A stretch of DNA of 64,000 nucleotides from Nibricoccus sp. (GTDB lineage Bacteria; Verrucomicrobiota; Verrucomicrobiia; Opitutales; Opitutaceae): assembly GCA_047602425.1 (NCBI GenBank), contig JASGHG010000001.1:1950263-2014262 (forward strand). Reading direction: 5' to 3'. How positions within the stretch are numbered: the first letter of the stretch is position 1; each line of letters opens with the position of its first letter. Under the pieces are notes generated by a model. The model did not search any database, was not told the DNA's origin, and was given only the letters and a program-made list of their open reading frames with translations. Shown piece by piece: positions 34,973-55,370 of this stretch. A program made the translations under genes and the position numbers.

Positions 34973-35470
34973 TTACGTGCCACGAACTCGATGGGGCCAG
35001 GTATCCCCGTCTGCGTCAGTCACTCGTGTCCCTATATTGACAGTGTCACCCGGATAATAAGTCACTGTTTTGTCGTAGTCGGGATCGAGGGCCATTGGAT
35101 TGTGACGCTCAGGCACATCGAGATTCGGGTCTACAATTGCCTCGAAATGACTTCCTTCCTTCGCATGGAAACCGGATTTAAGATAAATGGTGCTCGCAGA
35201 ACCGAAGTAAATGTCGGCACCACCCGGTTCGATCACTACATTTCCAGACGTACTGATGGAGCCTTCGTCGAGAATGACAATAGACGGCGGGCTGCTAGCC
35301 GTATCCTTTAACAGCAGTCCAGTTCCTGTGATCACTACACTGCCACTGCCGTTCAAAGAGACGGTGGTGTCGGCAAGCAGTGCGCTCACCGAGGCCATAA
35401 AAAATATGCAGGCAATGAGACTTCGGAGTAAGCGGCTTGATCGCAAATTCTGCCTGATCTGAAGATTCAT
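34973..35470 (-). pseudogene. Truncated duplicate of the N-terminal third of the 35529-36944 gene
   Basis: By my manual alignment, about 130 of the first 156 residues are identical to the 471-aa neighbour (MNLQI.QNL.SSR..RSLIACIF...LKxGFHAKEG.HF.AIVDPNLDVPERHNP...). Similarity ends abruptly after ...RVTD.DGD and the ORF stops 9 codons later. Confidence 0.7.
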
Positions 35471-37098: not shown

Positions 37099-37305
37099 TT
37101 AGTCTGTTCTGATTTTCTTGATCGCCAAGGCAATACCGATCAAAAGGAATAGTGATATAAATATCACCGTTATCGCTTTGAATTGAACAGGGCTATAGCC
37201 AAACATAAGGTAGAGGACTGAACACGCGAATAATGACATCACCGCGCCGCCAATAGCACCACACAGTAGTCCGACAACGACAGTATATACTTTATTGTAA
37301 TTCAT
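37099..37305 (-). CDS. Small two-TM membrane protein, putative immunity protein for the RHS C-terminal toxin
   Basis: 68 aa with two hydrophobic helices (VVVGLLCGAIGGAVMSLFACSVLYL; ITVIFISLFLLIGIALAI). Its ATG overlaps the RHS stop codon (ATGA, 37302-37305). Confidence 0.65.
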   Translation of the reverse strand: MNYNKVYTVVVGLLCGAIGGAVMSLFACSVLYLMFGYSPVQFKAITVIFISLFLLIGIALAIKKIRTD

Positions 37306-40300: not shown

Positions 40301-43268
40301 ACGCTATCTTCCCAAGAGGATCTGTTTCGCGAGTCATTCCGCCTGCAAAGCCATAGGTCCAAAGATGCGAGTCCAGCCCCAGGCTTCGTTGTTCTAAAAT
40401 ACGATCCGAAGTATCATAGACATTCGTCACCACGGTACGGCCTCGTGCATCGCTAATCTGCGTCATCAGTCCACGCGAATTAATAGTATACGTAGTTTCC
40501 TTACCCTCGGCATCCTTGAATACAAAATTTCCTTGATTTACGGTGTATTGAACCTCCCGGTCTGTGTTATCGGTGACTGTCTTTAGTCGACCAGATTCAT
40601 AGCCAAAATCGAAATAGCGGCCGAAGCTGTCGGTCACGCGCGTTAGAAGGCCGTTAGCATAAGTAGCGCTCAGTTTTCTTTCGGTTCCCGTGCTATTATT
40701 CTTATCAATAATGTCGGTGAACATTTTGTTCGCATCGAACTTAACCGTGGCTCCCTTTCTAAACTCCATGGTATAGGTCCCGTCGGCAGCCTGTGTAAGC
40801 GTCGCATTGACTCCCGCCGGGGGGGCATAGGTGGTGGTGGTAGCAGTGGAAAGCTTCGGCATTCTCGTAAACTCATAATTCCGAGTTCCAAAAGAAACAG
40901 AGGTCCTAGAATTTACCAGCTGGTCACCGGCCCAATTGGCGATGAGCGCAGGTACCAGCCAATGTTTTGGTGAACCATCCAAGTCGACGACATCCAACAG
41001 GGCGCGGGCAGCAACTACAAATGGCGCAACCTCTGCAGCCGTCGCACGTCGTAAATCGAAATCATTAGGATGCCGCTCTGAAAGTTGAATCGCATAACTG
41101 TGTGTCCAGCCTTTGCCCATTTTCGCCGGATCAGCCAATCGGCGTGCCGACGAATACTGGCGAACCAAAGCAAGCCCATGCGGAGACTCTCCGCCAAGCG
41201 TTAGGTCTGTGTCCTCCTTGTAAAACGCGCCGTTAGTAGTATCGACCGGATCCCATGATAGCGAGAGGGGAAGTGCAGAGGGTGTGTTTGTACCAAAAGT
41301 CGAACTCGCAAAGTAATCCTGATCGAAGGGTGTGACATTCAATTGATTTGGCATAGTCGCATAACCGCCAGCAAGCCCCCCCGTAATACCCATTAAACAG
41401 GTAGCGGCTCCTGAGGCATCTTCGGAGTAAAGCAAATAGCCTGTGCCTTTATACTCGTTTGACCATATTAGGCACTGATTCGGGATCGCTAAGCGTGCTA
41501 CCGGTTTCTCCATCTCGCTTTGAATTGCTGCGATTTCTGTTGCATCGAGTGTAGTGTAATTACCAATTAATGGCTTAATTAATTGGTAGTGGCTGTTGCT
41601 ATTGGCATAATATACATTATGATTATTAGATGAATCGATCCATTCAATCGCCCGTTGCATAAGCTTAACCGTTGATACGGCGGTATCAGGCACAGTCTGC
41701 TCAAGTGTAACATGCTCTAGCGCACTACCCAGATAGTTTCCGGCTAAAAATATCTTTTTACGATCAACCGCATTAACAGATCTGGGCGCAATGTTATCCA
41801 ATCTGAGCGGCAAATCCACATAAGGTGCCATCGAGGGGGTTGTCTTTATTCCGACTATACCAGCAAAACAATCGCACAGTTTTCTGCTACCACCCACAGA
41901 TCCCAGGATTTCATCCAGTAAATTCATCTGATTGAGATACTGCAGTCCAATGATATTAAGGTTCTCGGTTAACAATTTCCTCCCCTGTGGCAACTCCTGG
42001 CTGGTCACATATTCCGATTGTATTTGCAGGCGTTTCGCCAAACGACCAAGGCATTGGTCGAAACCGTACGCAATAACAGAACATCCCGCACGATCCAGTG
42101 CCTTGGCATTTTGTGTAATGGTGTAGGGAATATCCGGGAAAGTGTAGCTAAAGGTAACAGCCGCAACTACGGCCGCATCGACTTCTTCAACCAACATGGT
42201 GTCATCAAGCCAGAGCTGAGCTTTGCCTGAACTAAAATATACCGCCAATTTTTTACCCTGAAGTTCGGCCGTATAAAATGTCTTTTGCAGACTCCCTACT
42301 GTAACCGAAAATGTCATTGCATAATCAGTCGGTATCCCGGCCCACGACACTGCCGGAAATGCCACTGTATCTTCAAACATAACAGAAGGCAATTCCTCCG
42401 GTAGCGCTGTGAAAAATTCTGATTTTAATATAGCTTTGCCACAAATGTCAGCTCCAGATTCATCGTGAACCGTCGTCTGACAATATTGGATAAGACTGGT
42501 AGAGTATGACGACAGTTTATCTCGAAGAGCCGTCAGTCCACTTTGAGTCAGTTTAACCGAAAGCGTCTGATCAGAACCAGCCGCCGCATCATACACCGCA
42601 GCATTGCTGTAGGATATAGCCGAATCCAAGGAAATGGCTGGATTCCGCGAATGTCGCTTGAAGGATGGATCCAAGACGTAGTTTTTTCCAGCTATAGATG
42701 CAATTACCCATACATGGGGTACTCGAATGAAGTCCCGATCATATATGAGCGGGCTATCAAAATAATCGACGCGGCACTGCAACAACTGATCTCCAGCCAA
42801 GCTTGCATCGGACCCCAACCAATCAGCTACATCATTAGGGTCCATAACAACACCCCCAAATTTATAGGATGCATCGGCGCCACTTGCCTTCAATAAGGCC
42901 ACAAGCAAGGCACAGGTATCAAAATCGTTGCCAACTTTTTCCACCAAGGTCAGCTGCGCACCCCGCTTAAGTCCGTGGTAAGGGACGAACTCGATTGTAT
43001 TTTTCACCCACTCATAAATTCTGACAGGGTCGTTATTCAATGCGCTCGCAAGCGCCGTGATCTCCGGAGTAATTTCGTCAGCAACCGGGAGCAGCTGAGT
43101 CACCATATCTCTCGCCGCGACAACCCCCGCAGGTCTGGCCTGAAGCGCAGCGGCAAAACTTCTATTGCGCGCAGTAGCCTCCACAGGCTTAAACGTCCAA
43201 CCAGTTTGGGAGTGAAGCCTAGTGACTGCTAGAAGCAGCATGAGCGCTGATAAAGTGATCTTTTTCAT
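37302..43268 (-). CDS. RHS/YD-repeat toxin (1988 aa) with Sec signal peptide, N-terminal transglutaminase-like domain, RHS core and a glycine-rich C-terminal toxin
   Basis: MKKITLSALMLLLAVTRLHSQ signal. IYEWVKNTIEFVPYHGLKRG...GNDFDTCALLVALLKASG is a transglutaminase-like Cys core. There are dozens of YD repeats (e.g. YTYDSRGRVLTV, FEYNKRRQKT, YDYDALGNLIEV, YGYDAYNRMASV). The RHS-associated core reads YHYNHQGSTIAL...YMRARFYNPYTQRFLNADPIGFAGGMNWYAFANGNPVMMTDPEGK. A 192-aa G/A/V-rich tail follows. Confidence 0.9.
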   Translation of the reverse strand: MKKITLSALMLLLAVTRLHSQTGWTFKPVEATARNRSFAAALQARPAGVVAARDMVTQLLPVADEITPEITALASALNNDPVRIYEWVKNTIEFVPYHGLKRGAQLTLVEKVGNDFDTCALLVALLKASGADASYKFGGVVMDPNDVADWLGSDASLAGDQLLQCRVDYFDSPLIYDRDFIRVPHVWVIASIAGKNYVLDPSFKRHSRNPAISLDSAISYSNAAVYDAAAGSDQTLSVKLTQSGLTALRDKLSSYSTSLIQYCQTTVHDESGADICGKAILKSEFFTALPEELPSVMFEDTVAFPAVSWAGIPTDYAMTFSVTVGSLQKTFYTAELQGKKLAVYFSSGKAQLWLDDTMLVEEVDAAVVAAVTFSYTFPDIPYTITQNAKALDRAGCSVIAYGFDQCLGRLAKRLQIQSEYVTSQELPQGRKLLTENLNIIGLQYLNQMNLLDEILGSVGGSRKLCDCFAGIVGIKTTPSMAPYVDLPLRLDNIAPRSVNAVDRKKIFLAGNYLGSALEHVTLEQTVPDTAVSTVKLMQRAIEWIDSSNNHNVYYANSNSHYQLIKPLIGNYTTLDATEIAAIQSEMEKPVARLAIPNQCLIWSNEYKGTGYLLYSEDASGAATCLMGITGGLAGGYATMPNQLNVTPFDQDYFASSTFGTNTPSALPLSLSWDPVDTTNGAFYKEDTDLTLGGESPHGLALVRQYSSARRLADPAKMGKGWTHSYAIQLSERHPNDFDLRRATAAEVAPFVVAARALLDVVDLDGSPKHWLVPALIANWAGDQLVNSRTSVSFGTRNYEFTRMPKLSTATTTTYAPPAGVNATLTQAADGTYTMEFRKGATVKFDANKMFTDIIDKNNSTGTERKLSATYANGLLTRVTDSFGRYFDFGYESGRLKTVTDNTDREVQYTVNQGNFVFKDAEGKETTYTINSRGLMTQISDARGRTVVTNVYDTSDRILEQRSLGLDSHLWTYGFAGGMTRETDPLGKIAWTYFDERGRKIAYRDQLGNVSRWGYDGNDRVEYTRSPKGEETTMAYDAHHEVNQVTNPDGNSRTITPENDDSSTSRVENSFEGNQTTTEYYGYHKVKNVTATGGFTTSYTYDSRGRVLTVHPTAFAAGEVISYVYTDVAGYTKRVTATYPTAPTDTTAPTEITDLNARGDVIQFIDRGGRKTTFEYNKRRQKTKTVQWSGLYDATSPVGGTPPSDSIVSTTTYDDAGAVDYILDPRNNKVDYDYDALGNLIEVKGADGQVVKSQHYDERNLLGFTIDAFGNDTQFKYDDASRLKETIDPLVRHTYFDYDANGQRNYMKTALGHETDSVYNSLGLVDSTGDAMGFSIIHGYDKDGRPKTLKNRREQTYTWTYDDVARKVTTKTPEQKSTIVEKDTRGLLKTVTAPSLRVTEFKEYDAEGRLLKQKDGLGIETTFSYYPNGMLHEVSEGGMTTHREYDDFNRLKLYRDGDGNTLQYTYDAAGNLETITYPGNKVVTYGYDAYNRMASVSDWNGRVTSYAYDAGGRLKQVYRPNGTKRNMQYDAASQLCFVQELDVLGNVIWQQVLRYDKDGRIDLAVTAPVSDSGGVTSAPYYSATYDNDNRLETWNDVPVIHDDDGNMTLGPLPKDGSFGSYTYDGRNRLSSCNNVSYGYNPEGHRYRVGSIHYLVDPNASLSRVLVRNNGGTITRYVWGIGLVYEETDGATKTYHYNHQGSTIALSSDNGTSVLGRWEYAAYGQVRSQTGSADTPFLLHGSLGVMTESSGLVYMRARFYNPYTQRFLNADPIGFAGGMNWYAFANGNPVMMTDPEGKFAWAIAGFFIGAGVDLTVQLISNHGDWSKVNKTSVLVSGLAGAAGVGLGGKVAQLTTNILGRAVLNGVGSAVINGTGQIVKNVASGSDWEKDLGYAATVGGLFGAGGSIAGDLTERAFASFVQPSPFTQGLLDSGALQGRWKPLLFRGEKAPPTLGTQLGTGAGVVVANLSPVTDLFFSGGAAPQPAHNYYK

Positions 43269-43287: not shown

Positions 43288-44094
43288 TTACTGAGGTCCT
43301 TCCACGTTCCCTTCCTTGTCATATTTATGCGTTCGCGTGGGATCAGCTGTGAGACGATTATTTGCGTCATACTGATAACGGGCGGTGGCTGCTGGGTTGG
43401 GCGTGCTAGCCGCATTGTACGGACTGGAACCACTCGCAATCTCGACATAGTCGGGGTAGCCATCGTTATCGAAATCGATCGATGCAGCTGGAGACTCGAT
43501 CGTGAATCTCTTTCGCACCGTAGGGGTAGAGGCCCCTGAACGATCAGTGACTATAACAACCACAAAATGCAGTCCCGTACCCAGTTCGATGGGACAACAC
43601 GTGTAGCTAAAGCCTGCTCCGAGGTATCGGCTTGATGGCCCCGGGTATCCCAATGAGTTTACGGAATAGTCAGCAATATCCGGTCGGGCGAGTCCTACCG
43701 AAGGCCTTCCGACAAATATACCGTCGATGTATATTTTTATCGAATCGACCGGTGTCCCATCATCCCGGTCGACTGCCCACCCGCCTATATTCAAAATCCC
43801 CCCCTGCAGGTAAGCCGTTTCCAACGATGCAAGGGGCGGAGAGTTCACAATCGCATGGAAATAACTTCCTTCCCTGGCTTGAAAGCCGGCCTTTAAGACA
43901 ATCTGAGACGATGCAGAATACGTTACATTGGCACCGCTTTCAACAGTCACATTTGGGCCAGCCTCAATCGTCGATGGTCCTGAGACGGTCGTTGAGACCC
44001 CTGAAGAATACGTAACATCCTGTATGATTGTTTGGGCTCTGAGTCCCAACGCGGTCAACAACCAAAATAAAAGCAACAATGGAATTCGTTTCAT
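43288..44094 (-). CDS. Secreted accessory protein: LKAGFQAREG-type module, Ig-like domain, DNDG calcium-binding-like motif, C-terminal YD repeat
   Basis: Signal peptide MKRIPLLLLFWLLTALGLRAQ. SSQIVLKAGFQAREGSYFHAIV, IDFDNDGYPDYVE, and a terminal YQYDANNRLTADPTRTHKYDKEGNV. Its stop lies 19 nt upstream of the RHS start. Confidence 0.7.
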   Translation of the reverse strand: MKRIPLLLLFWLLTALGLRAQTIIQDVTYSSGVSTTVSGPSTIEAGPNVTVESGANVTYSASSQIVLKAGFQAREGSYFHAIVNSPPLASLETAYLQGGILNIGGWAVDRDDGTPVDSIKIYIDGIFVGRPSVGLARPDIADYSVNSLGYPGPSSRYLGAGFSYTCCPIELGTGLHFVVVIVTDRSGASTPTVRKRFTIESPAASIDFDNDGYPDYVEIASGSSPYNAASTPNPAATARYQYDANNRLTADPTRTHKYDKEGNVEGPQ

Positions 44095-44149: not shown

Positions 44150-45062
44150 CTAGTTACTGCTCTTGAGCCGTGTGATTTCCGTTTGTTGAGCAGCTATTTG
44201 AAAAGCTTGGGCTTCGATTTTAGATTTCTGTTCGTTAAGCTGTTTCTGCTGGTTGATGACGTGCAAAGTCAGCTCTTCAACTTTAGCCAAGAGGATCGGC
44301 CTGCATATCGCCGATGGAGACGCCGTTGGCAGCAACCTCCGTCGCCGAGGGCACGCCGGGCAAATGGCCTTGCTGCTCGATATGCCGCTCCACCTCGGCA
44401 AGCGGTGCTAACTTGTAGTCTTTGGCAAAAACGCAGTCCGACCAGTTGGTGGTTTCAACAACCACTTCTCTCGCGCGAATCCTTCCATTGACCGAAAGCT
44501 TTTCATTCGGGCTCGTCGTTCCGATACCGACATTTCCACCAACTGCTATATGTAATCTTGAAGTTTTCGCTGAATTAAAATCCTCAACGATATCGAAGGA
44601 GTTAGAGTTCCTAGCTACGGAACCACAAGTTAGCCCCCAACTATTGCCATAGGCATTCAATGAAAGCACTGCTTCAGCCAGCACACTTTGGCTATCGTTG
44701 CGTACCGCCGCTACAACTGCACTATCTACCGTCTTCCACAGATGCAGATCATAAATTGGTCCTACAGACCCAATGCCAATGTTGCCGTTATTATCAATCC
44801 GAAGACGGACCATTCCCGCTACATCATCATAGAATTGAAATCCTCCAGGAGTACCCACGCTTGGACCAAGTCGAAAACTGTGACCCAAAGAGTCCTGCAA
44901 TTGCAGAGGGTCCGTCGCAGTATTACCGACTAGCGTCAGTCTTGCTGCAGGATTGCTAGTACCAATACCGACATTGCCTGATTCAGGCCAAGGATAAGTA
45001 TTTTGAGAGTAACCAGCAGCTGAGGTCATGAGAAACGTAACAAAAGCGGCGATCTTTTTCAT
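44150..45062 (-). pseudogene. Tail-fibre-like secreted protein, paralogue 1 of 9 (frameshifted in the conserved C-terminal module)
   Basis: ORF 44283-45062 ends ...GVSIGDMQADPLG*. The expected continuation ILLAKVEELTLHVINQQKQL...coiled coil is in ORF 44150-44401 in another frame. An extra C sits in GCAGGCCGATCC (about 44298-44301), where intact paralogues read GCAGGCGATCC. Confidence 0.8.
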
Positions 45063-45076
45063 GGGGGTAATAAAAG

Positions 45077-46285
45077 CTATAATGTTTTATTCAGTTTTGT
45101 GTTTTCTGTTTTAAGAGCGGCAATTTCGGCTTGTTGGTCATTGAGACGCTTCTCTTGCTGGATCTGGCGGAGCGTCAGTTCTTCAATCTTGGCGAGGAGG
45201 ATTGCTTGCATATCACCGACGGAGACGCCTTTGGCGGCGACTTCCTGCGCGGAGGGGACTCCGGGGAGGTGCCCTTGTCGTTCGATGTGTTGCTCGACTT
45301 CGCTGAGCGGTGCCAGCTTGTATTCCTTAGCGAAAACGTAGTCTGACCAATTCGTCGTCTCCACGATCACTTCCCTCGCCCGAATCCTGCCATTGACCGA
45401 AAGCTTCTCATTCGGGCTTGTCGTACCTATGCCGACGTTGCCATCGCCACGTATCACCATCTTTGAGTTTGCTGGAGCCGATCCCTTGAGTCGGAAATCG
45501 ATAAATGTATTGTCACTATTATAAGTGTTAGCTATAAAAACCTTGTTAGCGGTTGGATCCTCACCAAGCCGACCCATGTAGTACGTTTGTGATCCGAACG
45601 CAATGACCTCTCCATCGGTGTCATCCCATCGCCTTACGTCCAAAATGGCGCTAGGACTTGCGGTGGCTATACCGATTTTCCCACCGCTCCCTGTAACAAA
45701 CATAGCGTCATTAAGGTTAAGGATCTTGTATAGGGATTGCGTTCGATCATATGAGATCAGTCTCCCTCGATCGGCCGATGTTTGATATGTGAGCTCAACA
45801 CCTCTACCAACCGAAGGCAGTCCGACCTCATCCGTAACAGACACTGCACCTGCAATATCTAGCTTAGATCTCGGGGTAATCGTACCCACTCCGACGTCAC
45901 CTGAGCCGCCCAATACAGTGATCCCTCCTCCGTATAAGTCGCCACTACTTAAGGGACCACCAAGAAAAACACGATCGTTAACCGCTCGCAATACGCCGAT
46001 CCAATCCGAACCCGCCTGATTTGGGGCTAATATCCCACTGTTACCGACAAGGATTTGCCCAGCGCCTGTGAAATTGCCACCCGGGACAAGCGCTGGATCG
46101 ACATTCAGCGCAAGCGACCGTGCTGGCTGATTCACGCCTAGACGCAATGCCTTGTAGTACGAGCTATACCCAAAGTTTGTTTCCTGAATGGGAATCTGAT
46201 CGGGTCCTACGTAAACCGTCTGCGCGAGAACAGACGCAACTGCAGCAACTGCAAACAGGACTAGGATGCTAAGATTTTTTTTCAT
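45077..46285 (-). CDS. Tail-fibre-like secreted protein, paralogue 2 of 9
   Basis: Signal peptide and a divergent N-terminus. Internal GDVGVGTITPRSKLDI / GKIGIATASPSAILDV. Conserved C-module GNVGIGTTSPNEKLSVNGRIRAREVIVETTNWSDYVFAKEYKLAPLSEVEQHIERQGHLPGVPSAQEV...MQAILLAKIEELTL plus a coiled coil. Confidence 0.85.
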   Translation of the reverse strand: MKKNLSILVLFAVAAVASVLAQTVYVGPDQIPIQETNFGYSSYYKALRLGVNQPARSLALNVDPALVPGGNFTGAGQILVGNSGILAPNQAGSDWIGVLRAVNDRVFLGGPLSSGDLYGGGITVLGGSGDVGVGTITPRSKLDIAGAVSVTDEVGLPSVGRGVELTYQTSADRGRLISYDRTQSLYKILNLNDAMFVTGSGGKIGIATASPSAILDVRRWDDTDGEVIAFGSQTYYMGRLGEDPTANKVFIANTYNSDNTFIDFRLKGSAPANSKMVIRGDGNVGIGTTSPNEKLSVNGRIRAREVIVETTNWSDYVFAKEYKLAPLSEVEQHIERQGHLPGVPSAQEVAAKGVSVGDMQAILLAKIEELTLRQIQQEKRLNDQQAEIAALKTENTKLNKTL

Positions 46286-47277
46286 TTTTGGCCTTCTTTC
46301 TCAATTAGCTTTTGCTGAAGCCGGACATTTTCCGATTCGAGAGTTTGAACTCGTTTTTCCTGTGCAATTACGTGCAGCGTTAATTCTTCAATTTTCCCCA
46401 AGAGGATGGCTTGCATGTTGCCGACAGAGACGCCGTTGGCAGCAACCTCCTTCGCCGACGGCACGCCTGGCAAATGACCTTGCTGCTCGATATGCTGCTC
46501 CACCTCGGAAAGCGGTGCTAACTTGTAGTCCTTGGCAAAAACGCAGTCCGACCAGTTGGTGGTTTCAACAACCACTTCCTTCGCCCGAATTTTGCCATTG
46601 ACCGAGAGCTTTTCGGTCGGGCTCGTCGTGCCGATGCCGACGTTGCCGGAAGCTGCCAAATATACCCTCTCGGTCCCGTCGGTAACTGGATTTCCACCCA
46701 AGGCATTGGACTGCATAAAAGCGAGATCACCGTAGGAGGTTCTGCCTTGCACGAGCGCCCAATTTCTCGAATTTGATTGTGTATAATCATTCAAAAACGC
46801 GATCCCACTTCCGCCTATACCTGACAAACCAGTATCATGAAATGCGGTAATAATATTCTGAGATACCTTTGCCACTTCCAACGCATAACCCGGCGCTGAA
46901 GTTCCGATGCCAACATTATTGTTGGCTTTTAGCACAATGTATCCACCCGCAGGATTATTTCGATTAAATAGGAATATATCCTCACCTGTCGTACTTCCAT
47001 TAAAGATCCCGATTGCTCCACTACTGAAACCAACATTATAGACATTTCCGCTTTGTCCTGCATAAAAATTACCGTGGTTGAAGCCCCAGTACCCCTGAGG
47101 CGCTTTCGCGATAAAGCTGATTAGCCCATTGGCTGTAATCGTACCATTTACTTCGAGAGCTGAAGTCGGGTTCATTGTACCAATACCGACACTTCCGGAC
47201 GCCGGCCAGGGAGTATTTTGTGCATAGCTGCTGACCGCGCCGATGAATGACGACAAGACTATCGATAGAATTTTCAT
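46282..47277 (-). CDS. Tail-fibre-like secreted protein, paralogue 3 of 9
   Basis: Signal peptide, YAQNTPWPASGSVGIGTMNP, and the conserved C-module. Its stop overlaps the start of paralogue 2 by 4 nt. Confidence 0.85.
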   Translation of the reverse strand: MKILSIVLSSFIGAVSSYAQNTPWPASGSVGIGTMNPTSALEVNGTITANGLISFIAKAPQGYWGFNHGNFYAGQSGNVYNVGFSSGAIGIFNGSTTGEDIFLFNRNNPAGGYIVLKANNNVGIGTSAPGYALEVAKVSQNIITAFHDTGLSGIGGSGIAFLNDYTQSNSRNWALVQGRTSYGDLAFMQSNALGGNPVTDGTERVYLAASGNVGIGTTSPTEKLSVNGKIRAKEVVVETTNWSDCVFAKDYKLAPLSEVEQHIEQQGHLPGVPSAKEVAANGVSVGNMQAILLGKIEELTLHVIAQEKRVQTLESENVRLQQKLIEKEGQK

Positions 47278-47342
47278 GATGAAGAACTCGACAAGTAACG
47301 TGCGAATAATCGGGATCCAGAAACGAAAGAATTATGACTTTG

Positions 47343-48581
47343 CTAGGGATGGGTGGATTTTAGATGGGCAATCTCGGCTTGTTGGGCGGCAATTTGCGTC
47401 TGTTGCGTATTTAGCTGCTTCTGCTGGCGGATCACGTGCAGTGTGAGCTCTTCGATTTTCGCGAGGAGGATAGCTTGCATATCGCCAATGGAGACACCGT
47501 TGGCTGCAACCTCCTTCGCTGAGGGCACGCCGGGCAAATGACCTTGCTGTTCGATGTGCTGTTCCACCTCGGAAAGCGGTGCTAACTTGTAGTCCTTGCC
47601 AAAAATATGGTCCGACCAGTTGGTGGTTTCAACAACCACTTCTCTTGCACGAACTCGGCCGTTGACCGAAAGTTTCTCGCTCGGATTCGTCGTACCGATA
47701 CCGACGTTGCCCAAAGGATCAATGGTAGCGGCATCTAGGTTGCTATTACCGTCCGAAACACGGAACGTTATTCTCCCCTTAGTGCCGCCGGCATAAACAG
47801 AGCCGAAGTATGCGTTATCGCCACCCTCGCCGGATGCTCCCCCTCCATACGAAACAAATGCGTAGCAGTTTGAAGAATTCGGTCTTGAAACTCGCAACCC
47901 GTCAGAAAGCAATCCGGCACTATTTAAATTCTGAACATGAAGTTTTGCTTCCGGGCTGGCGGGGCCAACGGCGAGGCTGCCCGTAGTCACGATATTTGTA
48001 TTCGTTGAAGTTATGAGATTTCCAGCAATAATGTGTGCCTGCCCTCCAGCTGGAGTTTCCTCAACATTATGTATAGTAATGGCGCCTTTGCTATCTATTA
48101 CACGCCACGCTACAGTCGGTGCATATTCCGACGCTCGGATTCTAATATATACCGTACGCGGCCCGCCGGTGCTACCAACCACGCGGACTTCCCGAAGATG
48201 CTCATTGTAAGTTTGTCGCTCTACACTAAAACCCACGCGGTCATTAAAGTAGGTTCCAAAAACCTTCACTTCGGCAATTTCTTCGCTCGCATTCGAACCA
48301 CTGCGAATTTGAAACCTAACGTAGTGGTTGTTAGGAATTGTCGCTAATTTGATCCATCTTTCATCACCAATCCCGAGGGATATACTTTGCAGCGAGGAGA
48401 AATATAGTTCTCCGATTCTAAATGATCCTCCTACATGAGTGTCACCACTCACATCGAGGGTAAAATTAGGATTAGTCGTGCCAATTCCAACGTTCCCGGA
48501 CGCGGGCCAAGGATACGTGTTTTGAGCATAAGTGCTGCCTGCAAAAACAAGCCCAAATATAAATGAGATGAAATATTTCAT
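47343..48581 (-). CDS. Tail-fibre-like secreted protein, paralogue 4 of 9
   Basis: Signal peptide, YAQNTYPWPASGNVGIGTTNP, a unique core, and the conserved C-module plus coiled coil. Confidence 0.85.
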   Translation of the reverse strand: MKYFISFIFGLVFAGSTYAQNTYPWPASGNVGIGTTNPNFTLDVSGDTHVGGSFRIGELYFSSLQSISLGIGDERWIKLATIPNNHYVRFQIRSGSNASEEIAEVKVFGTYFNDRVGFSVERQTYNEHLREVRVVGSTGGPRTVYIRIRASEYAPTVAWRVIDSKGAITIHNVEETPAGGQAHIIAGNLITSTNTNIVTTGSLAVGPASPEAKLHVQNLNSAGLLSDGLRVSRPNSSNCYAFVSYGGGASGEGGDNAYFGSVYAGGTKGRITFRVSDGNSNLDAATIDPLGNVGIGTTNPSEKLSVNGRVRAREVVVETTNWSDHIFGKDYKLAPLSEVEQHIEQQGHLPGVPSAKEVAANGVSIGDMQAILLAKIEELTLHVIRQQKQLNTQQTQIAAQQAEIAHLKSTHP

Positions 48582-48598
48582 TGATTCTGAATTTACGA

Positions 48599-49804
48599 TT
48601 ACTTGGCCTGCGCTTTAAGCCGTGTATTTTCTGACTCCAAAGCTTCGATACGCTTTTCTTGTCTAATTGCGTGGAGCGTTAACTCTTCAATCTTAGCCAA
48701 TAGAATCGCTTGCATTTCGCCCATCGAAACCCCTTTCTCCGCCACGTCTTTCGCCGAAGGAACGCCAGGGAGATGCTTCTCGATTATGATGTGCTGTTCA
48801 ACCTCGGTCAAAGGCTGCAACTTGTACCCATCGGCAAACACGTAGTCCGACCAATTCGTCGTCTCTACGACCACTTCTCTTGCGCGGATTCGGCCGTTGA
48901 CTGACAGTTTTTCGGTTGGGCTCGTCGTACCGATGCCAACGTTGCCACCTTCGGGATTCAATAAGAGGGAATAACTAGTTCCACTCTGCAATGTAGTATT
49001 ACCTGTGGCATTATTATACAATTCCAGCGTCCCGGCTTGCGCCGCAGTTGGTGTACCGTAACCAAGTCCAGAGCCAAGTTTTCCGCTATTGGATATGGCA
49101 ACGCTTCCGCAAACTTCTAATGTTTTGGATGGACTCGTCGTTCCGATGCCGACGCTGCCATTCGCATCAATACGCATACGTTCGGATATATTGACTGCGC
49201 CTCCATCAGTCGACGTTTGAACGGGCCCCGTTAAAAACGCAATGTATCCTCCGTTGGCCTCGATTGCTGAACGTGATGCTGGAACCTCGGTGCTGGATAC
49301 ATAACCAATGTCCAAATGTTTTGCCTTAACGGCATAGCCAAGAAACGACGCACCAGAACTATATTGCGAACCAAGCACGAACAGCGTGCCGCTGCCATAC
49401 GCACCGTAGAGATAGTCCACCCCCCAAGTGCTGTTATCATAGCCAGCGGTAATCGGGCCAATCACATGCAACGGTGTGCGTGGGCTCGTCGTGCCAATAC
49501 CGACGTTGCCGCCGCCGGGGTTAAGGCTTAACGGGTAGTACTGTACTCCGGTTTTCATCGCTTGGACGTATCCATAACCGAAGTCGGCTCGAAAACCGAT
49601 TCGCGTGCCTTCTGGGCTTCCATCTCCAGGATCAGACGAAGCCGCACCACTAAAGAGACCTGAGCCGACAACCGCCAATTTCGTACTAGCTCCCGGGTTA
49701 GTCGTTCCGATACCAATGTTGCCGGAGTTCTGCCAGAGGTTTGTTTGAGCGTAGCTGGTGGTAATGACGGCGAGCGGAAAAAGGAGGACTGTGTAGATTT
49801 TCAT
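48599..49804 (-). CDS. Tail-fibre-like secreted protein, paralogue 5 of 9
   Basis: Signal peptide and four GN(V/I)GIGTT punctuation motifs (GNIGIGTTNPGAS, GNVGIGTTSPRTPLHV, GSVGIGTTSPSKTLEV, GNVGIGTTSPTEKLSV), then the conserved C-module. Confidence 0.85.
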   Translation of the reverse strand: MKIYTVLLFPLAVITTSYAQTNLWQNSGNIGIGTTNPGASTKLAVVGSGLFSGAASSDPGDGSPEGTRIGFRADFGYGYVQAMKTGVQYYPLSLNPGGGNVGIGTTSPRTPLHVIGPITAGYDNSTWGVDYLYGAYGSGTLFVLGSQYSSGASFLGYAVKAKHLDIGYVSSTEVPASRSAIEANGGYIAFLTGPVQTSTDGGAVNISERMRIDANGSVGIGTTSPSKTLEVCGSVAISNSGKLGSGLGYGTPTAAQAGTLELYNNATGNTTLQSGTSYSLLLNPEGGNVGIGTTSPTEKLSVNGRIRAREVVVETTNWSDYVFADGYKLQPLTEVEQHIIIEKHLPGVPSAKDVAEKGVSMGEMQAILLAKIEELTLHAIRQEKRIEALESENTRLKAQAK

Positions 49805-49849
49805 ATGGATGTTTTAACCACTGATATTCATTGATGAACACTGATATAG

Positions 49850-50791
49850 TTATATACTCCCGGCTTTGAGCTGGGCGTTTTCCGCTTCGAGGGCTTTGAT
49901 TCGCTCGTTCTGCGATGCGAGCTGTTTCGCTTGCTGAATTTGATGCAATGTCAGTTCCTCAATCTTCGCCAAGAGGATCGCCTGCATGTAGCCAATGGAG
50001 ACGCCCTTCTCAGCCACTTCTTTCGCGGACGGAACTCCGGGAAGATGCTTCTCGGTTATGATGTGCAGCTCCACCTCGGCGAGTGACTGCACCTTATAGC
50101 CGTCGACAAACACATAATCCGCCCAGTTCGCTGTCTCCACAATCACTTCCCTCGCGCGGATTCGGCCGTTGACTGAGAGCTTTTCCGATGGGCTCGTCGT
50201 GCCGATGCCGACGTTGCCAGTGTTGGCTTGAATTCTTACCTTCTCGCTGCCGTCCAGATTGAACGTTATGAATCCACCAAAACCCGATGTTCCGGACTGT
50301 AGTTTTAATTCGCCGCTTTGAATATTAGCCAATAGGTTCGCCTGTATGCTTCCGTTCGTAGCGAAATTTATTCCTTTAAACTGGGAATTGTCGGTGCCGT
50401 TTAGAGTTAAAATTGGCGCAATACCCTTAACTTCCAGCAAGCTTGCCGGCGTAGTCGTGCCGATACCTATTTTACCACCGTTGGGATTTAAAAGTAGTGG
50501 ATAAATTTGAGTGAGATCCGTTTGGTTTGTTACCTGCAACGACCCTCCATCGCCGCCGTTCACGCTAAAATCAATCACGCCATTGCTACCCGCTCCCTGT
50601 AACCGAAGGATTCCAACTTGGTTTGATCCACTGCTCGCAGGAAAGCCGGTATCGCCAAGGATGTGTGTTCTCAATCCCGGGCTCACAATTCCGATGCCAA
50701 TATTACCGGAGGCAGGCCATGGATAAGTGTTTTGCGCGTAGCTATTGGCTATAATGGCGAGCGAAGTGAGGAGGAGTGCAAAAGATTTCAT
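49850..50791 (-). CDS. Tail-fibre-like secreted protein, paralogue 6 of 9
   Basis: Start placed at the internal MKSFALLLTSLAIIANSYAQ|NTYPWPASGNIGIG. Conserved C-module present. Confidence 0.85.
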   Translation of the reverse strand: MKSFALLLTSLAIIANSYAQNTYPWPASGNIGIGIVSPGLRTHILGDTGFPASSGSNQVGILRLQGAGSNGVIDFSVNGGDGGSLQVTNQTDLTQIYPLLLNPNGGKIGIGTTTPASLLEVKGIAPILTLNGTDNSQFKGINFATNGSIQANLLANIQSGELKLQSGTSGFGGFITFNLDGSEKVRIQANTGNVGIGTTSPSEKLSVNGRIRAREVIVETANWADYVFVDGYKVQSLAEVELHIITEKHLPGVPSAKEVAEKGVSIGYMQAILLAKIEELTLHQIQQAKQLASQNERIKALEAENAQLKAGSI

Positions 50792-50840
50792 CGGGGCATT
50801 TTCAACCACTGATTTTCACTAACGACCATGGATATAGGTT

Positions 50841-51896
50841 TTATTGGGATCGGGCTTTGAGCTGGCTGTTCTCGGTCTTGAGCGTGGTGACTTCAGCGCG
50901 AAGAGAGGCCAGTTCTTTTTCCTGCGCTATCTGGTGCAGTGTAATCTCCTCAATCTTGGCGAGCAGGATCGCCTGCATGTCGCCGAGTGAGACGCCGTTG
51001 GCTGTCACATCCTTCGCGGATGGGACGCCAGGGAGGTGCTTCTCCATTTTAATGTGCTGCTCGACCTCTGCCAAAGGTCGCAACCTGTAGCTATCTGCGA
51101 AAACGTAATCTGACCAATTGCTCGTCTCTACGACTACTTCTCTCGCACGGATTCGGCCGTTGACCGAAAGTTTTTCCGATGGACTCGTCGTACCTATGCC
51201 AACGTTGCCGTTCGATCCTTGTATAAACATTCGAATGCTCGGAGTATAAGCTGATCCGATGGTCAGGCCGATATTCGTGCTAATCGCCAGATTTCCAGCG
51301 GAGAAACTAACCTGCCCAGAATTTGAATCTCGAGCGATCCACCCGTTGCCCGATATGTATTCAGCATTGTGTGTTATTGCCAGTTCCCCGGAGTATCCGC
51401 TAAAATAGCCTCCACCCTGACCGCTGTTCAGGTTAACACGCAAAGATGTACCGGTGTCGCCAGGGCTGCCATAGCATTTATCGGCATAAATCACCGGAAT
51501 GTTGGTGCCCGTTGTAGGGCCAAGAATGTGCAGCGATGCTGTCGGAGCCGACGCGCCGATTCCAATACGACCAGCAGCATCAATTAATAATCTATCGGCG
51601 CAAGCAAGATTGTCAGCGAAATGCCATTTGCTTTCACCAGATCCGTCCACGTATATACCAAAGGTTCGCCCACCGACCGCTGTGTTGGAAAACTGAATCC
51701 CTGAACCCCAGCCGGGACCATTGCCGGTGAGATAAATCGCGGGAAAATTAACCGACGCCGAGTCTATATGCAAACGGCCAGAAACAGGGATGGTCGTTCC
51801 GATGCCAATATTTCCTGAATTCTGCCACAAATTGGACTGAGCATAACCAGCCGTTGTGGACGCAAAGACAATAAAATGAACCAAAGTGAATTTCAT
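50841..51896 (-). CDS. Tail-fibre-like secreted protein, paralogue 7 of 9
   Basis: Signal peptide, YAQSNLWQNSGNIGIGTT, and the conserved C-module plus coiled coil. Confidence 0.85.
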   Translation of the reverse strand: MKFTLVHFIVFASTTAGYAQSNLWQNSGNIGIGTTIPVSGRLHIDSASVNFPAIYLTGNGPGWGSGIQFSNTAVGGRTFGIYVDGSGESKWHFADNLACADRLLIDAAGRIGIGASAPTASLHILGPTTGTNIPVIYADKCYGSPGDTGTSLRVNLNSGQGGGYFSGYSGELAITHNAEYISGNGWIARDSNSGQVSFSAGNLAISTNIGLTIGSAYTPSIRMFIQGSNGNVGIGTTSPSEKLSVNGRIRAREVVVETSNWSDYVFADSYRLRPLAEVEQHIKMEKHLPGVPSAKDVTANGVSLGDMQAILLAKIEEITLHQIAQEKELASLRAEVTTLKTENSQLKARSQ

Positions 51897-51909
51897 CGAA
51901 TCATACTTG

Positions 51910-53115
51910 TCACTTAGCCGTGGTTTTTAATCGTGAATTTTCGGTTTCGAGAACCTGGAGTTTAGCCTGCAAATCATTGATCATCTTTGCCTGCGTAAGT
52001 TGGATTTTTTCCTGCGCGATTTGATGCAGTGTTAGTTCCTCGATCTTCGCCAAGAGAATCGCCTGCATATCTCCGATGGAAACGCCCTTTTGGCCGACCT
52101 CCTGCGCGGAGGGCACGCCGGGGAGGTGCTTCTCGTTTTTGATGTGCTGCTCCACTTCAGCCAATGGTTGCAACTTGTAGCTATCGGCAAAGACATGGTC
52201 CGACCAATTGGCCGTTTCAACGACCACTTCCTTCGCCCGTATCTTGCCGTTTACGGAGAGTTTTTCCGACGGGCTCGTCGTTCCTATACCGATATTCCCA
52301 CCACGGGTGATCGACAGTCTTTCTGCAAAAGTGCCGTCAGAATTAAGATCGTTTGTATATAGCCCTATCGTCGTTCCATAACCTCCATCACGACCGAATA
52401 CTATACCCGCCCCCCCGCCACCACCTGATTGGTATGTGATTCCATCCCAGCATACGTTACCGACATCTCCGTCTATTCGAATGCCATTTCCACTCAGCTG
52501 ATTGATATTAGAAGGGAGTGTTGTTTGGCTACTTCCGGCGATGGTCAAACGACTGGAGGGGGCAGTAGTCCCAATCCCGACCTTTCCACCAATCGGGTTG
52601 ATGACCAGGCTCTTATAGTTGTCTCCCGGCTTCACAGCTTGAATCCATGAATAACCCCCGTCGTTGATGCCTATGAGGAGCTTATTATCTGTGTTCTCGC
52701 CAGTACCCGTAGTGACCTGAAGAATCCCTTGATCAGTAACAGATGAACTCGACCCCGTAACCGATAATTTCCCCCAAGGCGTTTTTGTTCCTATCCCTAC
52801 GTTGCCGTAGTCATACATTGAAATTATCGCTTGGATATTGCCGTCCGAATATCGCTTATTGCCTATCGTAAATGTATACCCCGTCCGGTCTGAACTGAAA
52901 ATAAGTGCACCCTGATTTGGGTACTCCAAGTTCTCCATTGTCACCCCACGATAGCTGTTGGACAGCAATCTAATTGCGGTACTATTTACGTCCAATGCAT
53001 ATTGAGGATTCGTAGTCCCGATGCCGACATTACCTGCATTCTCCCACAGGTTGGTTTGCGTGTAACCAGCAACGGTAACCATAATAATACAGAGTAATGC
53101 AATGATGGATCTCAT
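51910..53115 (-). CDS. Tail-fibre-like secreted protein, paralogue 8 of 9
   Basis: Signal peptide, YTQTNLWENAGNVGIGTTNP, four punctuation motifs, and the conserved C-module plus coiled coil. Confidence 0.85.
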   Translation of the reverse strand: MRSIIALLCIIMVTVAGYTQTNLWENAGNVGIGTTNPQYALDVNSTAIRLLSNSYRGVTMENLEYPNQGALIFSSDRTGYTFTIGNKRYSDGNIQAIISMYDYGNVGIGTKTPWGKLSVTGSSSSVTDQGILQVTTGTGENTDNKLLIGINDGGYSWIQAVKPGDNYKSLVINPIGGKVGIGTTAPSSRLTIAGSSQTTLPSNINQLSGNGIRIDGDVGNVCWDGITYQSGGGGGAGIVFGRDGGYGTTIGLYTNDLNSDGTFAERLSITRGGNIGIGTTSPSEKLSVNGKIRAKEVVVETANWSDHVFADSYKLQPLAEVEQHIKNEKHLPGVPSAQEVGQKGVSIGDMQAILLAKIEELTLHQIAQEKIQLTQAKMINDLQAKLQVLETENSRLKTTAK

Positions 53116-53144
53116 TATTTTATGAAGTTAAATCTAGAATAGAC

Positions 53145-54327
53145 TTACGGCTTAGTTGCCTTTAATCGCTCGTTCTGCGCCTTGAGATAAAACACCTCGT
53201 TCTGGAGCGAGTTGAGCGATTTTTCCTGCGCGATCTGCTGCAATGTTAGTTCTTCGATTTTTGCCAGAAGGATGGCCTGCATGTCGCCGACGGAAACGCC
53301 GTTGGCGGCAATTTCCTGCGCGGACGGCACACCGGGTAGGCGCTTCTCGGTTTTGATGTGCTGCTCTACTTCGGAGAGCGACTGTAACTTGTAGCTATCG
53401 GCAAACACGTAATCCGACCAACCCGTCGTCTCTACGATCACTTCCTTCGCCCGGATCCTGCCATTGACCGAAAGCTTCTCGCCCGGGCTCGTTGTGCCAA
53501 TGCCGACGTTGCCACCATTCTCTTGGAGCGTAACTGGCTCTCCGCTTGATGTTGTATATATTGCCAGCCGCCTAGCAGCATTGAACCATTTGATATAGCC
53601 TGCCTGACTATACCACGTTCCTAGGCCAAGGTAAGAATCCACCGACTGCCCTCCCGAAAGCCACGCCCCATAATAGTCTCCGTCTGAACCCACATTAAAC
53701 GTTCCTCCAACTACGCTCAACTTTTGCATCGGAGTAGTCGTGCCGATGCCAATATTGCCGTTTTTAAGAACGGTCCAAGGATTTGAAAACGCTCCGTTAT
53801 AACCCTCCAATGTGAACATCGAGTCCCGTGCACTGAATTGCCATGCAGAAATTGAGGTGTTGTATATGCCTCCACCTGTAACAGCTCTGTTGAAGCCAAG
53901 TCCCGCTGTTTCGCCCGCTCGAATGCTGATGGCATTCGCTCCACCGTCAGAAATCACTAATTTATCTCCAGGATTGGTCGTCCCAATGCCGACATTGCCA
54001 CCCAATGGGTTAAGCGCAAGAGGGTAGCAAAATCCATTAGCTCCATTGTTGCGGGTCTGCATCCACCATGCATTCAAGGCGCTTTGATCATAACCCATCG
54101 CTAGGTCTACTCCTCCGTTACCCGCAGTGAAATTTACGATAGCCGAAGCCGTAGAGTTGAGCGACGGCGCGAACGTCGAAGCATTCTTAACCGTCAAGGC
54201 AGATGTCGGACTCGTTGTGCCTATACCAACGTTGCCAGAAGCAGGCCAAGGATATGTATTTTGGGCGTGGACTACAGTTGCAGCGGCGAGGCTCGAAGGA
54301 GGCGAGGAGCAGGAGGTGTTTGCTCAT
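53145..54327 (-). pseudogene. Tail-fibre-like secreted protein, paralogue 9 of 9 (frameshift inside the signal peptide)
   Basis: The track ORF (53145-54197) starts inside the protein. Its frame is open up to 54323 and reads ...SLAAATVVHAQNTYPWPASGNVGIGTTSPTSALTVKNAS..., but contains no start codon. The only ATG (54327, MSKHLLLLASFE...) is in another frame. The two frames join near 54292. Confidence 0.75.
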
Positions 54328-55221
54328 AAAGATAGGGTTGGACGAAGTTAAAGCGGAACAAGTGCAGGCGCAGACCTGCCTTTACCTTGTGGTGCAAGAG
54401 GGCGGTGCGACCCAAAAGAACAGCGGGCCGGCTTATTGGGCCAACTAGCTGCAACCAGCGGTTGGGGTGGCCATGAGCGGGCAGCCTGAGCAAGCTACCG
54501 GACAGCCAGAAGCCATGCCGGAAGGCACGGACGTGCGGAGCGTAACAGCTCGAAAGCATAATTGAAGGGTTGCGCGACAGGTAATGACGGCATGAACGCC
54601 ATCGGCGTGATGCGATCTGGGGTCCTACCCTATCGCGCCAAGTCACCCGCCAAGGGTTTCCCACGTGAAAAGAGTTGAATGCTAGATCAGTTCCCAATTC
54701 GCCGAACCATTTGCCTGATGTCAATACGTTTTCTTCAGTTTTTGTGACAGCGCAGCAAATTTCAGGTCACAGCAGTTGCGTCGATCGCACACAAAAACTG
54801 CCCACAGCGCCCGTATGGCGTCGGTCAAATTCTAAACCACGCTTCAATGGGATTTGCGTTCCCTACAAAAAACCCTTCACCCAATTCTTATCGGCTTTCT
54901 TATCGGTTTTGAAACCCCGACTCGCCAAGCAGAGTGAAAATTCAAAATACTGCACATTGTTCATCTGTCAGTTTACAAACGCAATGGACGTAGATGGACG
55001 TCCTTCAGAAAACTTAAAATCCCTTGTCCGAAAGGATGTGCATCCAAAACCGGCGAGGGTCGAAATGAAGCATACGAACAGAGTATCTAACCGCTAGATT
55101 GCCGCTAAAATGGTTAGCTTAAGCCTAACTTTTTGATACGGACAGAGGCCATAAATTATAATTAAAACATTTATCTTGAACAACTTACTAAAGTATTTAA
55201 TTTTCTATAAACTGCCCAAAC

Positions 55222-55253
55222 GCGGGTTCAACCCCCGCCACCTCCACCAATTT
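55222..55253 (+). repeat. tmRNA/tRNA 3'-end fragment with complete T-arm and encoded CCA (att-like, right copy)
   Basis: GCGGG-TTCAACC-CCCGC-CACCTCC-A-CCA followed by ATTT. Compare the E. coli ssrA 3' end GCGGGUUCAACUCCCGCCAGCUCCACCA. The upstream sequence is AT-rich and not tmRNA- or tRNA-like. Confidence 0.75.
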
Positions 55254-55255
55254 GC

Positions 55256-55304
55256 AAAAAGCGCTGTGACATATTTTTATTTCGCAGCGCTTTTTTGTTT
55301 TTTT
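55256..55304 (+). terminator. Rho-independent terminator (bidirectional-looking) immediately after the CCA end
   Basis: AAAAA-GCGCTG-(18-nt loop)-CAGCGC-TTTTTTGTTTTTTT. It could also terminate the convergent radical SAM gene. Confidence 0.75.
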
Positions 55305-55370
55305 AAGGGCCGAAGCTCGAAAATGAAAATGCCATAACCATCGCTTCGCTCTACGCGTGGCGAGGAGGGG

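Follow-up and report, generated by a model that had tools for sequence, protein, structure and literature searches.

The fibre gene array

A 64-kb stretch of the genome of Nibricoccus sp. (Opitutaceae, Verrucomicrobiota; contig JASGHG010000001.1), referred to here as the window, carries between positions 44150 and 54327 nine co-directional minus-strand paralogues whose products resemble exported tail fibres, followed in the same direction by the gene for a polymorphic toxin of the RHS family. From 54327 down to 37099, these genes and the small ones that accompany them form a single co-directional string in which no gap exceeds 65 nucleotides (nt). The open reading frame (ORF) list of the window agrees with the initial annotation of this DNA, which had counted nine tandem genes with gaps of -4 to 65 nt: in coordinate order, the intergenic distances along the array are 14, -4, 65, 17, 45, 31, 13, and 29 nt. 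The outer limits of 44150 and 54327 hold if the end genes are read across two 1-nt frameshifts (checked on the DNA), but not for the in-frame ORFs, which extend from 44283 to 54197. Seven of the nine copies are intact, and the frameshifted ones are those at both ends; the frameshifts are either real pseudogene lesions or assembly indels in what is a contig from a metagenome-assembled genome (MAG). Alignment of the nine proteins, which are 259-412 amino acids (aa) long, reveals a shared plan made of a signal peptide, a GNVGIGTT..P motif, a variable core, a conserved C-terminal module of about 110 aa (hereafter the C-module), and a coiled coil.

The string begins with paralogue 9 (53145-54327, minus strand, as are all that follow; in-frame ORF 53145-54197), which is matched by the C-module hidden Markov model (HMM). 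Its ATG lies at 54327 (MSKHLLLLASFE...), a 1-nt frameshift falls within the signal peptide at about 54290, and after the change of frame the protein resumes as ...LAAATVVHAQNTYPWPASGNVGIGTT / ...LAAATVVHAQNTYPWPASGNVGIGTTSP. Paralogue 8 (51910-53115, 401 aa) displays the full set of features, with a signal peptide, four GN[VI]GIG motifs, the C-module and the coiled coil, and it is the copy whose C-module was modelled. Paralogue 7 (50841-51896, 351 aa) was recognized by alignment, motif and C-module HMM. Paralogue 6 (49850-50809) has 319 aa when counted from a GTG, and contains an in-frame ATG from which the product would read MKSFALL.... Four GN[VI]GIG motifs are again found in paralogue 5 (48599-49804, 401 aa). 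Paralogue 4 (47343-48581, 412 aa) is 100% identical to QM715_08285 of a Nibricoccus sp. MAG, and has a predicted beta-sandwich-like core at residues 65-165. Paralogue 3 (46282-47277, 331 aa) overlaps by 4 nt with paralogue 2 (45077-46285, 402 aa), whose N-terminal motif is divergent (QTVYVGPDQIPIQ). In paralogue 1, the last gene of the array (44150-45062; in-frame ORF 44283-45062), a 1-nt insertion near 44299 cuts the C-module short, and the ORF ends at 44283 after ...GDMQADPLG. The remainder of the C-module and the coiled coil are found in another frame (ILLAKVEELTLHVINQQKQL...SSN, with the stop at 44150), where a second C-module HMM fragment is matched at 44153-44407. The locus tags QM715_08270 to 08305 cover eight of the nine paralogues in the Nibricoccus sp. 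MAG, all of them named "hypothetical," and related proteins of the same genome (QM715_20180-20200) indicate a putative second array elsewhere in it.

Signal peptides, motifs, and variable cores

A Sec-type signal peptide is intact in eight of the nine copies. Cleavage had been placed around YAQ/N; the signal peptide itself was confirmed, and the site is shifted here by the -3/-1 rule for signal peptidase sites, which makes ...Y-A/Q-N, with a glutamine at position +1, the more likely cut. Predicted sites that leave glutamine at +1 are also seen in two products of the downstream genes, a 268-aa protein (..LRA/QT) and the RHS protein (..LHS/QT). Glutamine at +1 after the signal peptide is known as the "Q-rule" pattern of Bacteroidetes, and its presence in a verrucomicrobial genome may reflect either a horizontal origin or a shared N-terminal pyroglutamate.

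About 6-10 residues past the predicted cleavage site, GN[VI]GIGT..P begins in eight of the nine proteins, and each protein has one to three further internal copies of the motif. A common mature N-terminus had been attributed to seven of the nine, a count that turned out to be approximate: five begin with NTYPWP, three are of the type TNLW(Q/E)N(S/A)GN, and one is divergent. The cores had been described as unrelated and hypervariable. When they were compared with each other by BLAST, only local matches of 12-99 aa were obtained, the significant ones falling on the internal motif, which upholds the first term and makes the second seem fair. Pfam searches of the nine proteins found neither Por_Secre_tail, the sorting domain of the type IX secretion system (T9SS), nor a YadA-type anchor. 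The Por_Secre_tail model does match small neighbour genes at two of the loci described below (L015 and L087). T9SS cargo and trimeric autotransporter adhesins were accordingly rejected as identities for these proteins.

Relatives among tail fibres and repeat proteins

Tail-fibre families of the PHROG collection match the paralogues over the motif regions only, with the top match between paralogue 5 and phrog_9942 (E = 7e-20). Against the sequences of the PDB, phmmer retrieves the Bdellovibrio fibres Bd2133, Bd2439, Bd3182, and Bd1334. When a full-length AlphaFold2 (AF2) model of paralogue 4 was submitted to Foldseek, 8ond came first (E = 3.7e-5), then 8oml and 8onc, and phage tailspikes after these; since the model is of low confidence, only these top fibre matches are trusted, and its matches to carbohydrate-binding modules and galectins (E = 0.06-0.2) are weak leads. 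Together with the signal peptides, these sequence and fold matches bear out the original description of the products as Sec-exported and tail-fibre-like.

The best PDB matches, in sequence as in fold, are thus the mosaic adhesive trimeric (MAT) fibres of Bdellovibrio bacteriovorus, a signal-peptide-bearing family (Caulton et al. 2024, PMC10769870; PDB 8OND, 8OML, 8ONC, 8OL4). A capping-loop consensus, V-G-G/N-pi-x-x-P-x-x-x-L, is common to MAT fibres, S74-type phage fibres, and MyRF (PMC10769870), and the GNVGIGTT.P...L motif of the array proteins agrees with it. Like the array proteins, MAT fibres have a Sec signal peptide, are beta-helical and tail-fibre-like, and form a multi-member family in a cellular genome; in both families, some members end in S74 and others in something else. 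The two differ in their layout. MAT fibres are about 1000 aa long and have a beta-rich domain, conserved and about 130 aa long, after the signal peptide and variable C-terminal tips, whereas the much shorter array proteins have the motif at the start, a variable middle, and a conserved C-terminus. Judged from the description of MAT fibres, eight of the nine have no room for the MAT N-domain before the motif. The array genes also differ from MAT genes in being packed in tight tandem beside RHS toxins and in belonging to non-predatory phyla. Among known proteins, the Bdellovibrio MAT fibres and the S74-type phage fibres come closest, a similarity that rests on the capping-loop motif. Another parallel is found in the multiple receptor-binding proteins of phages and tailocins, in which alternative fibres likewise lie side by side, their attachment ends conserved and their binding parts divergent. 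Unlike these, the array proteins are Sec-exported, have no virion or sheath and baseplate context, and carry a module that is absent from sequenced phages.

A profile of the C-module that included the motif matched 198,211 cluster representatives at E <= 0.001 across the whole library, a count that is uninformative on the C-module itself because the profile held the GNVGIGT motif and upstream columns, so that giant motif-repeat proteins dominate. The best 150 of these (P0121-P0270) are 1,788-7,920 aa long and contain 20-74 motif stretches; in the four that were checked, no Pfam model for the GNVGIGT repeat was found. The representatives point to what appears to be a very large unmodelled repeat family, and the window proteins, with their two to four units, are thus short versions within a very large superfamily of repeat fibres.

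The C-terminal module

The C-module contains 52 invariant columns in the nine-copy alignment and is followed by a variable heptad-repeat helix, in which the a and d positions are 60-73% hydrophobic and some core positions are occupied by glutamine or asparagine. The near-invariant module and the terminal coiled coil were therefore found as first described. Between copies, the module DNA is 67-88% identical. Because the median proportion of differing synonymous sites (pS) is 0.70, and thus saturated, against a median of 0.13 for nonsynonymous sites (pN), with dN/dS ratios of 0.04-0.17 where computable, the comparison indicates long-standing purifying selection on the C-module, and old paralogues that have been kept rather than relics. 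Recent gene conversion was considered as the source of the conservation and rejected, the synonymous sites being saturated.

Homologues of the module, at 45-75% identity, occur in Pedobacter, Niastella, Flavobacterium, Opitutaceae, and Bryobacteraceae, all of them without a Pfam domain. Most are named "hypothetical," and the labels "tail fiber protein" and "bZIP transcription factor" are rare. The initial annotation could place the C-module in no characterized family, and it remains outside all of those searched: nothing matched the nine proteins in Pfam and NCBIfam, and the best match of a motif-free C-module profile among all PDB sequences has an E-value of 0.22. An AF2 model of the module, built on a 63-sequence alignment (predicted local distance difference test score, pLDDT, 85), shows an ill-defined strand region, then a pair of short helices, and at the end a helix of 54 residues with a pLDDT above 90. 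Foldseek found nothing significant for this model in the PDB or in BFVD, the model being mostly one helix and the monomer of a probable oligomer. The sole near-significant fold match is BFVD A0A5J6VKV2 (E = 0.019 over 92 columns, 23% identity), a 719-aa uncharacterized protein from a Megaviridae environmental sample, which may be a true relative or may represent bacterial contamination in a metagenomic bin.

Comparison with the peptidase S74 domain

In phage fibres and related proteins, the corresponding terminal position is occupied by the peptidase S74 or ICA domain (PF13884; K1F endoNF 3GW6, T5 pb1 4UW8, MyRF). Like the C-module, this is a C-terminal module that comes right after the last capping-loop motif, has a Ser-Asp dipeptide at a comparable distance past the motif, and ends in a coiled-coil helix. 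The C-module differs in being shorter, and the beta-hairpin segment is absent from its AF2 model. PF13884 left the nine proteins unmatched even at E <= 1, while the positive controls P0180 and P0182 were recognized at E = 1e-13 and E = 1e-15, respectively. In the W-S-D tripeptide of the C-module, the aspartate is invariant and the tryptophan nearly so. The lysine of the catalytic SDxxxK is missing: the nine copies have F, A, V, or G at Ser+5, and no lysine is conserved there in the 63 sequences. By sequence, the catalytic Ser-Lys dyad of S74 is thus absent from the C-module. Given the lack of the dyad lysine, of a Pfam match and of any match to an S74 structure, and given its shorter length, the C-module is probably not self-cleaving.

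The giant repeat proteins offer a direct comparison of the two kinds of tails. About 14 of them end in SDxRxK..., and the two checked are true PF13884 proteins; three others (P0186, P0208, and P0250) end in the C-module instead of S74. Both tails begin alike, with NVGIGT..P..L.V.G.IRA, then 8-13 residues, then S-D, and hhalign aligns the NVGIGT..P..L.V.G.IRA segments of C-module and S74 tails with 97% probability. Once the motif is removed, a 30-residue collinear local match remains immediately ahead of the coiled coil (P = 1.4e-4, probability about 50%), in which LPgvPSA..GVS.G.M..LL.KIEEL is set against lPe.V...G..sV.Y.nm..lIEaike. In the PDB, the motif-free profile finds no S74 chain at E <= 10. 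The earlier statement that the module does not follow the S74 pattern consequently stands as far as the catalytic motif and the Pfam model are concerned; it has to be softened insofar as the module occupies the S74 position and retains a weak profile match. The C-module is possibly a degenerate S74 relative, and its membership of the S74 family is not supported by these comparisons. It is likely to be an alternative fibre terminus that nucleates oligomerization and stays attached.

The downstream RHS toxin and its small neighbours

Directly after the array comes the gene for a small exported protein (43288-44094, minus strand, 268 aa), which is matched by NF045639 (3-coathanger stack, E = 5e-11) and ends in YD-type repeats (YQYDANNRLT...YDKEGNV). 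It is followed by the gene of the RHS polymorphic toxin (37302-43268, minus strand, 1988 aa). From N- to C-terminus, this protein consists of a signal peptide, a transglutaminase-like N-domain, DUF6531, RHS repeats, the Rhs-associated core, and a Gly-rich C-terminal domain of about 190 aa, an architecture that has been described for Sec-dependent RHS toxins (PMC3482391). The RHS stop codon and the start of a 68-aa membrane protein gene (37099-37305, minus strand) share a 4-nt overlap, and this protein is a candidate immunity protein. The window's gene thus belongs with the described Sec-dependent RHS toxins in which the transglutaminase N-domain is inactive (Zhang et al. 2012, PMC3482391). For this class, the 2012 survey of polymorphic toxins names no signature neighbour genes, and it uses "tail-fibre" for repeats inside toxins only; a separate upstream fibre array is not described (PMC3482391). 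The SpvB/beta-propeller (TcB/TcC-like) RHS toxins of the same survey also have counterparts, since in other genomes it is an SpvB/FG-GAP/RHS version that comes after the array.

Distribution and gene neighbourhoods

The C-module was searched for in one genome per GTDB species, and at least 532 stretches of these species-representative genomes contain it. Among the best 80, most are from Bacteroidota, including many Pedobacter and Sphingobacterium as well as Tenacibaculum, Aquimarina, Ekhidna, and Bacteroidales; Opitutaceae/Opitutales, Balneolaceae, Acidobacteria, Ignavibacteria, and a few others are also present. Tandem arrays are usual in many loci, with up to 18 C-module HMM matches in 14-20 kb.

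Flanking ORFs were clustered over 91 fetched loci plus the window, 92 sequences in all. A link between the array and the RHS gene had been proposed in the initial annotation by inference only, along with a tabulation of C-module neighbours across genomes. In that tabulation the commonest recurrent neighbour by far is an RHS homologue, found in 36 of the 92 sequences, and in 30 of the 35 fetched loci with such a homologue the gene lies directly after the array or one small gene away. Its strand is that of the array in nearly all of them, and the small gene in between sometimes encodes an exported protein. The synteny is oriented: among loci with at least 4 kb of room on the tested side, and counting RHS or TcB/TcC-like genes, an RHS start lies within 3 kb downstream in 22/54 and an RHS end within 3 kb upstream in 4/60 (Fisher p = 1.4e-5), which gives the proposed link the backing that it did not have. 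RHS genes follow arrays of two or more copies more often (17/29) than singletons (5/25; p = 0.006). The associated taxa include Sphingobacteriales, Flavobacteriales, Cytophagales, Bacteroidales, Balneolaceae, and Verrucomicrobiota, the last represented by the window and by Nibricoccus sp. IMCC34717, in which five fibre genes lie beside a 2404-aa SpvB/FG-GAP/RHS protein. The order of array and RHS gene is kept across orders and phyla at C-module divergence down to about 50% identity.

At five other loci, a small exported protein of about 150-190 aa adjoins the RHS gene (L015 10363-10860, L087 10355-10816, L060, L072, and L078), and in four of the five its gene lies between the RHS and the fibre gene. 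The presence of a T9SS C-terminal sorting domain was confirmed by Pfam in the small proteins of L015 and L087, and that of L060 has a YD-like stretch after the signal peptide. In position, these proteins correspond to the 268-aa protein of the window.

In at least nine loci (L008, L010, L011, L012, L016, L027, L054, L065, and L070), genes resembling those of a type IV pilus or type II secretion system (T2SS) are interleaved with the fibre genes. They encode pilin (N_methyl), prepilin-peptidase-like, T2SSE, secretin, T2SSF, and PilM-like proteins, and occur in Sphingobacteriaceae, Flavobacteriaceae, and one Balneolaceae MAG.

Among open-access papers, none was found that deals with the family or with the RHS-fibre synteny.

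Surroundings in the window

Beyond the RHS gene, two more exported proteins with the 3-coathanger stack (NF045639) are encoded at 35529-36944 and 34973-35470, making three with the one at 43288-44094; these two have near-identical N-terminal halves (MNLQI.QNL.SSR...). Further on, at 32931-34379, lie an excisionase-family gene, a Phd-type antitoxin gene (these two at 32.9-33.7 kb), and a P-loop ORF that is zeta-toxin-like. Between about 34 and 54 kb the fractional GC content is 0.49-0.50, against 0.52-0.58 outside. Because of this lower GC and of the excisionase and Phd antitoxin genes, the composition and gene content suggest that the RHS and fibre region may be a genomic island. Scans of the window for tRNA genes and Rfam families found nothing, so that no integration site of the tRNA type can be assigned, and in a promoter and terminator scan the counts equalled the shuffled expectation. 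The stretch of about 1 kb that precedes the first fibre gene (54328-55370) is without a convincing ORF or Rfam match, and may have a regulatory role for the 17-kb gene string.

Apart from RHS, the Pfam matches among 29 further ORFs of the window are confined to genes for polysaccharide use, one radical-SAM protein, and one LacI-type regulator. Elsewhere in the window lie genes for TonB-dependent receptors, for an alginate lyase, GH88 and GH43, and for a sugar kinase and a symporter, together with those of a radical-SAM protein and a hybrid histidine kinase. The first part of the window (1-32000) resembles a polysaccharide-utilization locus in its gene content: it has two TonB-dependent receptor-like proteins, the alginate lyase, GH88, and a GH43 whose C-terminal domain is ConA-like, as well as a ketohexokinase, a sodium:solute symporter, and a LacI-type regulator.

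A proposed fibre repertoire for a Sec-dependent RHS toxin

The reading favoured here is that the array encodes a set of exported, trimeric fibres by which a Sec-dependent RHS toxin is targeted or anchored, and its probability as a combined reading is put at roughly 0.5. Its parts are not equally firm: that the proteins are fibres is held with high confidence, while their functional tie to the RHS toxin is a tentative proposal, with marginally more doubt than belief attached to it. Each protein would consist of a Sec signal peptide and then two to four beta-helix units marked by GNVGIGTT.P...L.V.G, with variable sequence between them. By analogy with phage tail fibres and with the MAT fibres of Bdellovibrio, the chains would assemble as parallel trimers, and the C-module would act as a trimerization or folding nucleus that is retained, unlike the self-cleaving S74 chaperone. 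The variable cores would form ligand-binding surfaces, so that the array would amount to a repertoire of alternative specificities. Since the fibre genes are tightly packed and co-oriented with the RHS gene, the small gene and the immunity-candidate gene, in an order that recurs across phyla, the fibres could be the part of a Sec-dependent RHS antagonism system that provides adhesion, targeting, or presentation at the surface. The adjacent type IV pilus or T2SS-like machine may serve this system in some lineages, and would there provide export across the outer membrane.

Several observations weigh against this reading. The full-length AF2 model of paralogue 4 has a pLDDT of only 62.5, and no outer-membrane anchor is recognizable in the nine fibre proteins, for which the cell surface, as suggested in the initial annotation, is a putative location. 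The Pfam scans of the 64-kb window found no T2SS or pilus gene in it. The RHS statistics come from loci that are phylogenetically non-independent, many of them from Pedobacter. An RHS gene is nearby in only about 40% of the loci with downstream room and is lacking at most single-copy members, so that a strict dependence of the family on RHS can be dismissed. Finally, the N-terminal types of the RHS proteins differ, being transglutaminase-like in the window and SpvB/FG-GAP (TcB/TcC-like) in L015 and L092, which argues against one specific docking interface.

The fibre-toxin reading can be extended, in a form that we regard as possible and yet doubtful, to an unrecognized delivery route for Sec-exported RHS and TcB/TcC-like toxins of Bacteroidota, Verrucomicrobiota, and their relatives, with the arrays as its target-recognition module. 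Other toxin systems have TcA, a type VI secretion system (T6SS), or a CdiA stalk as delivery parts. Here, interchangeable trimeric fibres sharing the C-module would replace these and set which cells the toxin cocoon meets, and the pilus or T2SS-like machine would export or mount the fibres in some lineages.

The main rival holds that the array is a general repertoire of adhesins or fibres for surfaces, polysaccharides, or cells, without any tie to RHS, the two merely sharing a mobile island. The many loci, and most of the singletons, that have no RHS nearby fit this idea, as do the lower-GC stretch bounded by the excisionase and toxin-antitoxin genes and the weak fold matches to carbohydrate-binding modules and galectins. 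It does not account for the direction of the RHS association (downstream rather than upstream) nor for the operon-like tight packing, and mere hitch-hiking should not last so long as to keep the gene order across phyla at a C-module identity of about 50%. We therefore consider it unlikely, although it is the strongest of the competing explanations.

Another possibility is that the fibres are substrates or accessory parts of the type IV pilus or T2SS-like apparatus, which would then be their primary partner machine in place of RHS. The machine genes lie amid the arrays in nine loci, and a Sec signal peptide without a T9SS or autotransporter domain fits a T2SS route. These loci make up only about 9 of the 91 fetched, mostly in Sphingobacteriaceae and Flavobacteriaceae, with none of the machine genes in the window; an RHS gene is also present in most of them, so that the idea overlaps with the fibre-toxin reading. 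As a separate explanation, it is distinctly improbable.

The last alternative is a decaying prophage or tailocin tail-fibre region, made of silent relics. It can draw on the PHROG tail-fibre matches, on the frameshifts in both end genes, and on a single viral contig. On 2.9 million IMG/VR contigs, the C-module was found at 11 loci; one of these, L087 (2437-17550 of IMGVR_UViG_2728369500_000003), has a P2-like baseplate module (gp25, J, I, and tail collar) directly upstream of a signal-peptide fibre gene, which is followed by the small gene with the T9SS sorting domain and then by a 2250-aa RHS gene. Because the baseplate module is directly upstream, the fibre-RHS cassette can sit beside prophages. 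Against a relic stand the intact signal peptides of eight of the nine paralogues and of all but two IMG/VR members; to our knowledge, virion proteins are not Sec-exported. The initial annotation had reported no phage or tailocin structural genes and had argued against a prophage remnant. Pfam scans of the 64-kb window agree, in that they found no phage, tailocin, or T6SS gene, and a tblastn search with the C-module against 50,697 phage genomes found nothing. With these negative searches, the rarity of the module on viral contigs, and the strong purifying selection at saturated synonymous divergence, the prophage relic is close to excluded.

Cellular tail-fibre-like adhesins with signal peptides were already known. 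The array had been called unusual on the ground that phage tail fibres lack signal peptides, and in this respect the claim went too far in view of the Bdellovibrio MAT fibres (PMC10769870) and of the arrays that are very common in Bacteroidota. What is new is the undescribed conserved domain and its conserved RHS link. The C-module is very widespread, and yet it has neither a Pfam or NCBIfam entry nor a solved structure. With it, the principle of the "cellular tail-fibre adhesin" is extended to non-predatory phyla, in a layout with a conserved terminus and a variable middle. The link between RHS and the fibres is genetically testable in culturable Pedobacter, Sphingobacterium, Flavobacterium, and Tenacibaculum, and the upstream fibre array is a candidate answer to how the Sec-dependent RHS toxins of diderm bacteria may reach or recognize their targets.

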